Shown here: one piece after another, positions 7,713-17,557 of the stretch | How positions within the stretch are numbered: position 1 is the first letter of the stretch | Layout: each line of letters begins with the position of its first letter | Source: Candidatus Aenigmatarchaeota archaeon | GTDB taxonomy: Archaea > Aenigmatarchaeota > Aenigmatarchaeia > JACPZZ01 | Assembly: GCA_043801595.1 (NCBI GenBank) | Contig: JAZDLW010000019.1 | Span: forward strand, 43,094-107,093 | Direction: 5' to 3' | Length of the DNA stretch: 64,000 nucleotides | Program-made: the position numbers and the translations under genes | The notes under the pieces: model-generated | The model's input: only the letters and a program-made list of their open reading frames with translations | The model's database searches: none | What the model was told of the DNA's origin: nothing

Positions 7713-8660
7713 ATGGAAGAGAAAAATAAGGAAACGGTCGAAAAGGAAAAACCGGCAGAAGCCGAAAAGGCGGTAGAAAACGTTGTCGAAACCGCCCCGG
7801 TCGAAGCGCCGATCGCAGAGGCGATTACGCCGGCCGCTCCTACAGTCGAGATAACGCCGGAAGACGTTAAAGCGTTCATGCCGTCACTTGAAAACTGGAA
7901 ACCAAAAACAAAGCTCGGAAAAGAGGTCATGGAAGGCAAGCAGGATAACATTTATAAAATTCTTGAAAACGGCGTCAAGATCAAGGAATTTCAGATTGTC
8001 GACAAGCTTGTACCAGATCTGGGAAATGAAATAATCTATATCGGCGGTTCTCCGGGAAAAGGCGGTGGCAGTCAGAGAACCATCACGAAAAAAACCGCCA
8101 GAATGCATAAATCAGGGCGCAGATTCAGACTTTCGTCGCTCGTTGTTGTCGGTAACGGCAACGGAATAGTCGGCATCGGACAAGGCACGGGAAAGGAACA
8201 CAGGAATGCCATTGAGAAGGCAGTTGAACATGCGAAACTTAATCTTGTTACCATTCGCAGGGGTTGCGGTTCATGGCAGTGTGCGTGCGGACAGGCCCAT
8301 TCGTTTGCAACAAAGGCAGTCGGACGTTCAGGATCAGTAACAGTTGAATTCCGGCCTGCACCAAGAGGAACAGGGCTTGTAACAAGCGATGATTTGAAGA
8401 AAGTCCTGAAGTCGGTTGGGATAAAAGATGCATGGTGCCGGACAAGCGGAAACACCGCGTCAAGGACGAATCTAATAAAAGCAGGGTTCAATGCGCTGAA
8501 AAGCATGAACAATATGAAAACCGTTTCAAATGACCTTTTTTTAAAAGGTCAATCAAAAGAGAATGAAAAAGTTCAATCAAATAAACTTTCTTCGGAAGAA
8601 AGTTTAATCAAAGAAGCTTTGGAAAAAGGTAAATCAAATAAGCCTTTGGAAAAGGCTTAA
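7713..8660 (+). CDS. rps5: 30S ribosomal protein S5 (uS5) with N- and C-terminal extensions
   Basis: WKPKTKLG, RMHKSGRR, VVVGNGNG, RRGCGSWQC, PAPRGTG; tail encoded by palindromic repeats. Confidence 0.96.
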   Translation: MEEKNKETVEKEKPAEAEKAVENVVETAPVEAPIAEAITPAAPTVEITPEDVKAFMPSLENWKPKTKLGKEVMEGKQDNIYKILENGVKIKEFQIVDKLVPDLGNEIIYIGGSPGKGGGSQRTITKKTARMHKSGRRFRLSSLVVVGNGNGIVGIGQGTGKEHRNAIEKAVEHAKLNLVTIRRGCGSWQCACGQAHSFATKAVGRSGSVTVEFRPAPRGTGLVTSDDLKKVLKSVGIKDAWCRTSGNTASRTNLIKAGFNALKSMNNMKTVSNDLFLKGQSKENEKVQSNKLSSEESLIKEALEKGKSNKPLEKA

Positions 8661-9522: not shown

Positions 9523-11079
9523 ATGATTTTGGAGCCGCTATTTAATTTTCTGCCTTCGATAAAAAAGCCTGTTGAAAAGCAGACGCTTAAAAAAAGATTG
9601 AAGTGGACAGGCATAATGCTTCTTCTTTATTTTGCAATGTCCCAGGTCACGGTTTACGGCGTTTCAGAAACGGCGTTGCAAAGGTTTGCGTTTCTTGAAC
9701 TGATTTTAGGATCCAGGTTCGGATCTTTGATGACGCTGGGAATAGGGCCTATCGTAACCGCGTCTATAATATTGCAGCTGATGGTCGGTTCAAAGATAAT
9801 AAACTGGGACCTCTCAAAACGCGAGCAGAAATTGAAGTTCGAAGGCACGCAGAAGATCCTTGCAATTGTAATTACAGTGGTCGAGGCTGCGGCATACGTA
9901 TCGTTTGGCGCGGTTCCGCCCATACCCGGTGCTTCTGCGTTGCTGGTTGCATTTCTCATATTACAGTTGTCTCTGGGCGGCTGGCTGGTCATACTCATGG
10001 ACGAAATAGTAACGAAATGGGGTTTTGGATCAGGCATAAGCCTGTTTATCGCAGCGGGAGTTTCGAGCCAGATAATAATACGAATGGTAAATCCACTCGC
10101 CGCATGCGTCGATAACCCGTTAAAAGTCTGCATTCCCGATGCCACGAACGCGCCCGCAGGATTGATACCGAATGCGCTGCTGGGTTTATTTTCCGGCAAC
10201 TTCGCAGATGCAATCGTCAATCTTATACCGATAATATCAACCGTGATAGTTTTCATGATCGTAATCTACGCGCAGGCGATACGCGTTGAGATACCGCTGG
10301 CTTTCGGATATTTCCGCGGGTTCGGAAGAAGCTGGCCGCTGAAATTCATTTACACGAGCAATATACCTGTAATCTTAACAGCAGCGCTGATCGCAAACGT
10401 GCAAGTTATGGGCGCGCTGCTCGCAGCGAAGGGATTTCCGATACTCGGCACGTTCGACGCGTCCAATACACCACAAAGCGGCATTTCGTTGATGTTTTCC
10501 GTGCCGCGTGAACTGCCGGTACAGACAATGATGCTTACAATCGGGATAGCGGTCGTTATCGGGTCTTTGATTTCGGTTTACTATATCAAAAAATACCTTG
10601 GCGAGATAATGGTCTTGTCAGGGTTGCTAGGGATAATCATATGGTTCTTCGGATTCCAGGCCTTGGGATTTTCCGCAGCCACAGCTTTGACAGCGCAGAG
10701 CGTTGCGAGGCTGATCGCGTACACGCTGTTCCTGTCATTGGGGTCAATTATGTTTTCGATATTCTGGGTGAACACTGCCGGAATGGACGCCGGAAGCGTT
10801 TCAAAGCAGATACAGTCAATAGGAATGCAGATACCCGGATTCAGGCGCGATCCGCGAATAATAGAATCCGTGCTTGAGAAATACATACCAAACCTTGCAG
10901 TGCTCGGCGGTGCGTTCGTAGGTATTCTAGCCGCGTTCGCAGACTCTGTAAACGCGCTTGGAACAGGGACGGGAATACTTTTAACAGTAATGATAATATA
11001 CAACATGTACGAACAGCTGGGCATGCAGCAAATGGAAGAGCTGCATCCGGCTGTGCGAAAATTGTTCGGAAAGGAGTGA
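9523..11079 (+). CDS. secY: Preprotein translocase subunit SecY
   Basis: LGIGPIVTASIILQL, GFGSGISLFIAAG, PLKFIYTSNIPVIL, IPGFRRDP, GTGTGILL. Confidence 0.97.
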   Translation: MILEPLFNFLPSIKKPVEKQTLKKRLKWTGIMLLLYFAMSQVTVYGVSETALQRFAFLELILGSRFGSLMTLGIGPIVTASIILQLMVGSKIINWDLSKREQKLKFEGTQKILAIVITVVEAAAYVSFGAVPPIPGASALLVAFLILQLSLGGWLVILMDEIVTKWGFGSGISLFIAAGVSSQIIIRMVNPLAACVDNPLKVCIPDATNAPAGLIPNALLGLFSGNFADAIVNLIPIISTVIVFMIVIYAQAIRVEIPLAFGYFRGFGRSWPLKFIYTSNIPVILTAALIANVQVMGALLAAKGFPILGTFDASNTPQSGISLMFSVPRELPVQTMMLTIGIAVVIGSLISVYYIKKYLGEIMVLSGLLGIIIWFFGFQALGFSAATALTAQSVARLIAYTLFLSLGSIMFSIFWVNTAGMDAGSVSKQIQSIGMQIPGFRRDPRIIESVLEKYIPNLAVLGGAFVGILAAFADSVNALGTGTGILLTVMIIYNMYEQLGMQQMEELHPAVRKLFGKE

Positions 11080-11083
11080 TCGA

Positions 11084-11668
11084 ATGTCTTTGGTAATTGT
11101 TGCAGGGGCGCCGGGCGTGGGAAAAACAACCGTCCAGAATGTCGCATTGGAACAATTGCAGCAAACGAAACCGATCAAGGTCGCGATGTTCGGCGATTAT
11201 ATGTTTTCGATAGCAGAGAAGGAAAAACTTGTAAAAAACAGGGACGAGATGCGAACGAAAATACCGCGCGAAAAGTACAAGGACCTGCAGGCGAAAGCCG
11301 CGGAACAGATAGCGGCGGATGCGAAAAGCCGGAATGTGATCGTAAACACGCATCTTTCAATGATAACGGCTTTCGGGATAATTCCCGGGCTGCCGTTGAA
11401 CATATTGAAGATGCTTGATCCGAAACTGATAGTGATTGTCGAAGCGGATCCGGAGGAGATAGCGATTCGCCAGAAGACGGACAAGGAACGGGAACGCTCC
11501 GACTTCGGAGACGCGGGAAAGCTGCGCGAGTTCCAGAATTATTCGAGATCGTGCGCTGCGGCATATTCGGTCATACAAAACGTGCCTGTAAAGATAATAA
11601 TGAACAGACATGGAAAGATCCGCGAGGCGGCAGGCGAACTGACAGAAGTGTTGCGCAATGTTTTCTGA
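11084..11668 (+). CDS. adkA: Archaeal adenylate kinase
   Basis: GAPGVGKTT P-loop, FGDYM, RDEMR, PGLP; follows secY. Confidence 0.92.
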   Translation: MSLVIVAGAPGVGKTTVQNVALEQLQQTKPIKVAMFGDYMFSIAEKEKLVKNRDEMRTKIPREKYKDLQAKAAEQIAADAKSRNVIVNTHLSMITAFGIIPGLPLNILKMLDPKLIVIVEADPEEIAIRQKTDKERERSDFGDAGKLREFQNYSRSCAAAYSVIQNVPVKIIMNRHGKIREAAGELTEVLRNVF

Positions 11669-14994: not shown

Positions 14995-15022
14995 CTAAAA
15001 AGAATAGCGCCGAGGAAGCGAT
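14995..15022 (-). repeat. att-like copy 1 of tRNA-Ser 3' end
   Basis: ctaaaaagaatagcgccgaggaagcgat matches 17129-17156 at 26/28. Confidence 0.85.
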
Positions 15023-17035: not shown

Positions 17036-17141
17036 TCACAAGACTGTTATTTTGGTGAGGTCTCCAACCAGTGGGTCTCCTGGGCCGGGAGTTTACCCTA
17101 TAATTGAACTCCCTCGTATGGGCGTCCTCTAAAAAGATTAG

Positions 17142-17375
17142 CGCCGAGGAAGGGATTTGAACCCTTACGGGACTTGCGCCCCACCGGATTTCTAAGGCTC
17201 CAAACTTAAAGGATTCCTCATCTCGCCGCCGTGATCAGAATCAAGCCTTGTTGTCATAGCCTCTCAAGTATCGCCTATGCACCAATCATCTCTGGTATCA
17301 GCATATCCGGCGCATTTAACCTGGTTCTGCCTTCGATTGTACAGCTGGAATACTTCCAGCAGCAAAAACCTCGGC
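17142..17375 (-). tRNA. tRNA-Ser(TGA) with introns at 30/31 (17270-17306), 37/38 (17190-17262) and probably 8/9 (17332-17367)
   Basis: Spliced: GCCGAGG TG GCAGAACCAGGTTAAATGC G CCGGA CTTGAGA TCCGG long variable arm AAGGG TTCAAAT CCCTT CCTCGGC G; discriminator G; perfect BHB for 30/31; CCA not encoded. Confidence 0.85.
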
Positions 17376-17557
17376 TCTCCTCGGCATATTTTAATTGCGC
17401 GGAAAGGTTAATAAACGTCCGTTTGGCACGCCGCGTTTAGATACCAAGCTACGTCAAAAAATCACGCATAAATATGGCATATGACGTAGTTGAATGACAG
17501 GTATTATAAAAAAAACATTCGCTAAATCTAAAAGAAACGAAAAACGGAATAATTGTT

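Follow-up and report, generated by a model that had tools for sequence, protein, structure and literature searches.

The minus strand of the window (the whole stretch of 64,000 nt that was analysed), which comes from an Aenigmatarchaeota archaeon, carries a tRNA-Ser(UGA) gene which is interrupted by three introns and which is preceded by a second copy of its own 5′ acceptor strand. We suggest that this spare strand in the leader likely pairs with the 3′ acceptor strand and thereby frees the inner strand for the splice motif of the intron between nucleotides 8 and 9, before RNase P likely trims the leader. We put the probability of this reading at roughly 0.7. The 5′ leaders of tRNAs are usually deemed disposable, whereas the leader described here appears to be selected for pairing with the 3′ strand of its own tRNA. 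Such a helper would be a simple and testable answer to the problem of splicing an intron whose signal needs bases of the acceptor stem.

All features of the gene lie on the minus strand. A TATA-like 8-mer (17408..17415) ends 22 nt before the outer GCCGAGG (17379..17385), which is situated in the 5′ leader, is complementary to the 3′ acceptor strand and is predicted to act as the placeholder. A spacer of 3 nt (17376..17378; AGA here, AAA in six relatives) separates it from exon 1 (17368..17375; nt 1-8), which consists of the inner GCCGAGG (17369-17375), that is, the inner acceptor strand, and U8. The 8/9 intron (17332..17367; 36 nt) has a relaxed BHB motif, to which nt 3-6 contribute in the central helix and nt 1-2 in the exon-side helix. 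Exon 2 (17307..17331; nt 9-30) contains the D-arm and the 5′ anticodon stem, and is followed by the 30/31 intron (17270..17306; 37 nt) with four of four pairs in the central helix and five pairs in h′. Then come a micro-exon of only 7 nt with the anticodon UGA (exon 3, 17263..17269; nt 31-37), the 37/38 intron (17190..17262; 73 nt), for which circular RNA was found and which has a box C/D-like layout, and exon 4 (17142..17189) with the 3′ anticodon stem, variable arm, T-arm, 3′ acceptor strand and G73. CCA is not encoded at the end of exon 4, a T-run comes next. The exons are collinear and span 234 nt behind the single TATA-like box. In-silico excision of the three inserts leaves an 88-nt cloverleaf which ARAGORN calls as tRNA-Ser(tga); the unspliced gene gives no match in ARAGORN and none in Rfam at the gathering score. 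Genes of this kind escape such standard scans, and the outer copy invites the assignment of a wrong 5′ end.

A preliminary description of this DNA had read three BHB-type introns with their coordinates, a 7-nt micro-exon and a twofold GCCGAGG from the minus strand. These assignments are correct, as the spliced product is called as tRNA-Ser(tga), the anticodon exon is invariant in 7/7 aligned genes and both copies of the 7-mer are in place. A 4-bp central helix with 3-nt bulges is present at all three introns and is kept in the seven orthologues. The 8/9 motif is relaxed with three of four central pairs (CGAG/ATCG) and the 30/31 motif is perfect (CGCC/GGCG, 4/4), both as previously proposed. 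The 37/38 motif is relaxed as well, but the helix GGCT/AGCC that had been taken for its central helix is the intron-side helix h′; the central helix is CTTG/TTAG with three of four pairs.

We searched 60 relatives for orthologues. The gene is present in five of the six other genomes of the genus and in one genome of the same family (G007), and additionally on one metagenome contig (L049). Over the seven orthologues the exons differ at 0-5 of 88 nt (1-5 when the genus genes and the contig are compared with the window); the introns diverge. The gene of G007 has neither the 8/9 insert nor the upstream copy, and because it joins nt 8 straight to nt 9 (a junction which was read by eye) the 8/9 junction is fixed; the insert is predicted to be removed, as first supposed. 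The five genus genomes and the metagenome contig keep both the 8/9 intron and the copy, with intron lengths of 22-81 nt and with the junction pairing preserved. Four introns are found in G001, G002, G005 and G006, five in L049 and six in G004, when the variable-arm intron of G005, G002 and L049 is read by eye as one 50-nt intron, as in G001. The gene of G004 (L005/L068; G004:C25, about 10940-11345, minus) is 403 nt long with introns at 8/9, in the D-loop, at 30/31 and 37/38, in the variable arm and in the T-loop, each with 3/4 or 4/4 pairs in the central helix, and after splicing it is also called as tRNA-Ser(tga).

Transcription is likely to begin at the outer copy or immediately upstream of it. 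The spacing of the TATA-like box had already placed the start there, and this holds up: the same spacing is seen in five of the seven Ser(UGA) orthologues (the window counted), and in 53 control Ser-type genes the distance from TATA to G1 is at least 19 nt and mostly 22-26. Counting both strands, the genome contains the 7-mer 85 times, so that chance alone would place a copy within 15 nt with a probability of about 0.0008.

With an intron-anchored scan of 371 genomes we obtained 17 matches (control: 2), namely 14 tRNA-Ser genes with an 8/9 intron and three chance matches. An upstream copy was accepted when it forms six or more pairs with the 3′ strand, of which five or more are Watson-Crick. 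The copy is present, as a complement of 6-7 nt, in 14/14 tRNA-Ser genes with an 8/9 intron, which come from four families and have three different Ser anticodons. Adding the metagenome contig and a Cys gene (family f9), which was found via its duplicate, the count is 16/16. By the same rule a copy precedes 10 of 116 tRNAs without 8/9 intron (118 matches, 116 examined), or 13 at the loosest. Seven copies before intron-less genes are intact and near the gene, and the one in G001:C33 is a clear counter-example; four of the ten belong to a set of 11 Ser(UGA) leaders that carry a box C/D-like half-guide, and in two others of this set the copy looks decayed. A class scan anchored on the duplicate gave 40 matches, and the 30 loci that were read are mostly chance matches outside of tRNAs.

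For other acceptors we searched for the start of a D-arm which is not preceded by U8, and found 94 matches (control: 8). Among these, 65 are called as tRNAs with introns at 8/9 (38) or 9/10 (27), and 64 of them have leader sequence; the 29 uncalled matches are mostly chance matches in coding sequence, with a few real tRNAs. The central helix has 4/4 pairs in most of these other 8/9 and 9/10 genes. A complement of the 3′ strand is found in the leader of 41 of the 64 intron genes versus 3 of 86 intron-less controls, the class I controls being from a single family (f18; 86 of 176 matches read). Of the remaining 23 genes, 22 show pairing between leader and D-arm with an energy no weaker than -8 kcal/mol, versus 8 of 83 controls, at an energy cut-off which was set after seeing the data (the first criterion fired in 6/12 controls). 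Taken together, a leader helper of either type, directed to the 3′ acceptor strand or to the D-arm, accompanies 63 of the 64 genes interrupted at 8/9 or 9/10, versus 11 of 86 controls; these counts overstate independence because the genomes are kin. On sequence grounds the upstream GCCGAGG is probably functional.

Some further leaders deserve mention. The tRNA-Phe L236 (G232:C20:25545) has a 9/10 intron and two tandem copies of the acceptor strand in its leader. The initiator tRNA of the assembly that contains the window (G000:C20, about 2090-2340, minus) has a 30-nt intron at 10/11, and its leader pairs with the D-arm at -17 kcal/mol. In family f18 (L089-L092, L131, L156, L158, L163, L172-L177, L180) the Ser(UGA) leaders carry a half box C/D element, D′/C′-like, with a short guide complementary to their own anticodon loop.

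The assembly that contains the window, G000, has 814 kb, is 86% complete and encodes EndA and RtcB. There is one alpha-type EndA gene, in which the catalytic Tyr and His are separated by an insertion. This insertion aligns gap-free with the alpha subunit of N. equitans, and we take it, from this alignment, as the L3 loop described in the available text of PMC5829648. The alpha-4-type EndA with L3 loop reported there for DPANN archaea may have its counterpart here; a divergent beta subunit could escape the search. An RNase P RNA match of 63.6 bits (E = 7e-18) lies below the cut-off and a match to Rpp29 lies above it. No match to PF08745 was found in G000.

We suggest that processing could proceed in these following steps. 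Transcription would start at about the outer copy, and the outer copy would pair with nt 66-73. By sequence the 8/9 motif needs nt 3-6 paired with the intron and nt 1-2 paired with nt 10-11; since nt 1-6 are taken up by this pairing, the normal acceptor stem is excluded as long as the motif exists. A single EndA would cut and RtcB would join the exons at 8/9, 30/31 and 37/38. Then the inner strand would displace the outer copy, probably driven by tertiary folding, and the cut of RNase P at the inner G1 would render the switch irreversible. The 37/38 intron is released as a circle, which is seen in RNA, and would likely serve as a box C/D guide on 16S rRNA. A single transcript would give rise to a tRNA as well as to a guide RNA in stable circular form. 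This scheme predicts splicing before RNase P, the reverse of the order reported for Methanopyrus kandleri, where according to the available text the ends are trimmed before intron removal (PMC3695527).

Folding models bear on these steps to different degrees. In an unconstrained fold the outer copy is already bound to the 3′ end, and in the modelled precursors the outer copy is paired with the 3′ strand at a probability of 0.79-1.00 in 16/16 cases; replacing the copy in the model leads to capture of the inner strand in 9/16, at a probability of at least 0.66. The central helix of the 8/9 motif, on the other hand, has a modelled probability of 0.000 at each of the seven Ser(UGA) loci of the genus, whether the copy is present or not; over the 16 cases, the copy raises this probability strongly in only three and lowers it in one. 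The cost of forming the motif with the copy is here 3.9 kcal/mol lower than with an A7 leader and only 0.5 kcal/mol lower than with scrambled copies, and the gain is about 0 kcal/mol for the four loci with long spacers. The post-splicing model still prefers the outer copy (0.53-1.00 in 16/16), so the release is left unexplained by the model. Tertiary contacts and proteins are absent from it, and we infer that tertiary folding and RNase P would bring about the release. The models hence support the outer pairing, and do not support the splice motif here or the release.

It could be argued that the copy mainly times RNase P. The occupied 3′ strand would present a wrong 5′ end, the leader would be kept until the 8/9 intron is out and freeing the inner strand would be secondary. 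Trimming first, in the order reported for M. kandleri (PMC3695527), would trap the 8/9 intron, and a strong outer pairing with little gain for the splice motif is what the model yields. We nevertheless consider this explanation unlikely, as the leaders that pair with the D-arm in 22 of the 23 copy-less genes suggest that the shared need is the splice motif. The timing of RNase P and our placeholder reading overlap and both may hold.

The copy might instead be a neutral scar of intron insertion or of a mobile element, which is inherited with the intron and spread by conversion. Copies without intron in 10/116 tRNAs, the hairpin repeats within the introns and one Ser(CGA) copy located where an inserted LAGLIDADG gene ends in the leader would fit such an origin. 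The details of the copies speak against it. The copy ends at the pairing region, being followed by a base other than U in 15 of 16 genes. Where copy and inner strand differ, the copy is Watson-Crick and the inner strand is not at 10 positions, and the copy wobbles at 7; it tracks the 3′ strand, also where the inner strand wobbles, and not the inner copy. The copy occurs with 15 different acceptor sequences among the class I genes; it survives unrelated spacers of 0-57 nt, and it looks decayed in some intron-less genes (L174, L177). The covariation already refutes a neutral scar for the most part, and we regard it as rather improbable.

Still less credible is that the outer copy is the true mature 5′ strand and that the spacer and the inner copy belong to a longer intron or to a fourth one. 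Points in favour are the start at the outer copy, as given by the TATA spacing, the preference of the model for the outer copy also in the spliced state, and the product with A8, which according to ARAGORN would still be a tRNA-Ser. However, U8 follows the inner copy only, the h′ helix fits the inner junction only (5-6 pairs in 5/7 orthologues), identical repeats are unable to pair mutually as a central helix, some copies pair across only 5-6 positions and components of RNase P are present. Moreover, the intron-less tRNA-Asn of G000 shows the wobble of the inner strand, which points to the latter as the mature one. A fourth intron of 10 nt between the copies was rejected. That the 8/9 insert stays in place, in what would be a pseudogene or a product of misassembly, is hardly conceivable: the assembly is 86% complete and a spliced 8/9 junction was not seen in RNA, but the exons of seven orthologues are nearly identical while the introns have diverged, both copies are covered by one DNA contig from another run, an exact circle of the 37/38 intron is found (see below) and no other Ser(UGA) gene was found in G000, a check already called for in the preliminary description.

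Three other known gene types were considered and rejected. A split, trans-spliced tRNA does not fit exons which follow each other in sequence over 234 nt downstream of a single TATA-like box. A permuted tRNA does not fit the collinear exon order and an upstream element which repeats the 5′ strand and not the 3′ half. A leaderless tRNA, as in archaea devoid of RNase P, does not fit the RNase P RNA match (below its cut-off), Rpp29 above its cut-off and the missing PF08745 match.

Multiple and non-canonical BHB introns in tRNA genes have been reported from Thermoproteales, ARMAN-2 and Asgard archaea (PMC4090602, PMC3239211, PMC8450103, PMC11291895, PMC12397907). As far as these sources could be consulted, known introns resemble the present ones in the 3-4-3 geometry, in relaxed variants, in occurring several per gene and in their nested dependence. 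Even an extreme acceptor-stem site, 3/4, is known (PMC4090602, PMC12397907). The published list of intron positions, in the part available, contains neither 8/9 nor 9/10; the Asgard table with 228 introns (PMC11291895) stands outside this comparison and may list 8/9 or more than three introns per gene. The maximum stated in the available texts is three introns per tRNA gene (PMC8450103, PMC3239211, PMC4033280), whereas the Aenigmatarchaeota relatives have four, five and six. Unlike here, no leader helper is mentioned for the known multi-intron tRNAs in these texts, and literature searches returned neither a leader helper nor an 8/9 site among the records or in the accessible part of PMC3218864. 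The 8/9 site may be new in print. A cis leader helper appears to be unpublished as far as searched; multi-intron tRNAs, acceptor-stem introns and intron-borne guides are already known. A parallel are the split tRNAs of Nanoarchaeum equitans and Caldivirga (PMC4033280, PMC3218864, as available), in which likewise sequence outside of the mature tRNA pairs and aids the BHB. There the flanks pair mutually in trans and within the motif, whereas here a leader in cis pairs with the 3′ strand of its own tRNA outside of the motif.

On balance, we are inclined to generalize. Archaea would possess a general class of cis-acting leader chaperones for tRNAs, in which introns that borrow acceptor bases persist only when the leader stands in for the strand or clamps the D-arm, with RNase P as the final ratchet. 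This would allow up to six introns in a single tRNA gene of Aenigmatarchaeota, one of them a circular rRNA guide.

Excision at the predicted sites is documented for the 37/38 intron. The metatranscriptome X20 contains a contig identical to this intron whose joint returns 73 nt back, at a depth of 829, as well as a variant circle; the same 73-nt joint is seen in X19, from another study, at a depth of 2.7. The ends of the circle agree with the predicted boundaries within one base, and no such joint was found in the two DNA runs compared with the gene. The result was repeated with G001 as reference, and since the 37/38 intron is identical in G001 the RNA circle is not assignable to G000. Leader, exons and the 8/9 and 30/31 introns had no RNA coverage in the metatranscriptome mapping, which proves nothing. 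No sequencing run contained as much as half of the stretch.

Of the three introns, the one at 37/38 is by far the most conserved. It contains box C/D-like words in the order C-like (about 17252-17258), D′ (17235-17238), C′-like (about 17216-17222) and D-like (17199-17202), again on the minus strand. The D′ box and the C/C′-like words are conserved in 17 fetched Ser(UGA) introns from several families; the boxes C and D are degenerate here. Rfam has no family for either the gene or this intron. The first guide is predicted to form 8 contiguous pairs with the 16S rRNA of G004 near the 3′ end (the 16S of G000 is not in the assembly). The second would form 10 pairs up to a 16S intron boundary, or 12 by eye across the boundary, and its target is presumably the helix-27 region. 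In the 23S of G000, nothing beyond wobble-rich 11-13-mers was found. The guide core and the D′ box recur in the 17 introns and in NeqsR13, a box C/D sRNA of N. equitans (PMC4644070, supplementary file 1 row 259, the portion available). In the six listed introns of family f1 one guide base is not that of NeqsR13 and agrees with the 16S of G004. Other differences to NeqsR13 are the host, here tRNA-Ser(UGA), the second guide, which fits the helix-27 region, and the degenerate boxes C and D. Guides inside introns of tRNA-Trp and tRNA-Met and stable circular forms of introns and sRNAs have been described (PMC3491384, PMC7994747, as available). The 37/38 intron is hence likely a box C/D guide, as predicted from its boxes and complementarities.

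The rRNA genes of these organisms are themselves interrupted. The 16S of G004 (L055; G004:C2:760-4093) spans 3.3 kb and the 23S of G000 (L048; G000:C1:6572-10613) 4.0 kb, each with several inserts, some of which carry open reading frames; two rRNA inserts flank the predicted target of the second guide. The fibrillarin gene of G000 (L378, about 1975-1990; G000:C23:157640) is split over two frames at an A run, which may be an assembly error, slippage or a real lesion.

It had been proposed that the 37/38 motif can form only after splicing of the 30/31 intron. This is too strong: the exon-side helix does need the 30/31 junction, but the central helix uses nt 32-35, which lie inside the micro-exon. 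A relaxed HBh′ form of the motif is therefore possible before the 30/31 intron is removed, and a strict order with 30/31 first is plausible. Local folds reproduced the exact 37/38 motif neither before nor after 30/31 removal. Nested dependence and order of close introns have already been described (PMC8450103; PMC3728597, as available).

Other tRNA loci of the genome show similar features. The Ser(CGA) locus exists in two versions within G000 (G000:C3:6466 and G000:C10:2180-2322; L036, L042; L034). In the second of these, a LAGLIDADG_3 gene is inserted between promoter and tRNA and overlaps the leader, and the tRNA has 8/9 and 30/31 introns; G005 has a LAGLIDADG gene at the same place. A further tRNA of G000 (G000:C13, about 8181-8317, minus) reads as Ile(UAU) with a 37/38 intron; an Ile(UAU) tRNA with an intron at this site is reported for ARMAN lineages in the available text of PMC3239211. 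Finally, 2.1 kb downstream of the tRNA-Ser(UGA) gene the window contains a near copy (26/28) of the 3′ end of the tRNA on the minus strand (14995-15022 versus 17129-17156). Between these 28-nt repeats are situated a gene of the ParE family, a DUF7557-like partner, a protein with Sigma70_r4/RNA_pol_A_CTD similarity and an orphan; the interval is likely a small element that integrated at the tRNA-Ser(UGA) gene.
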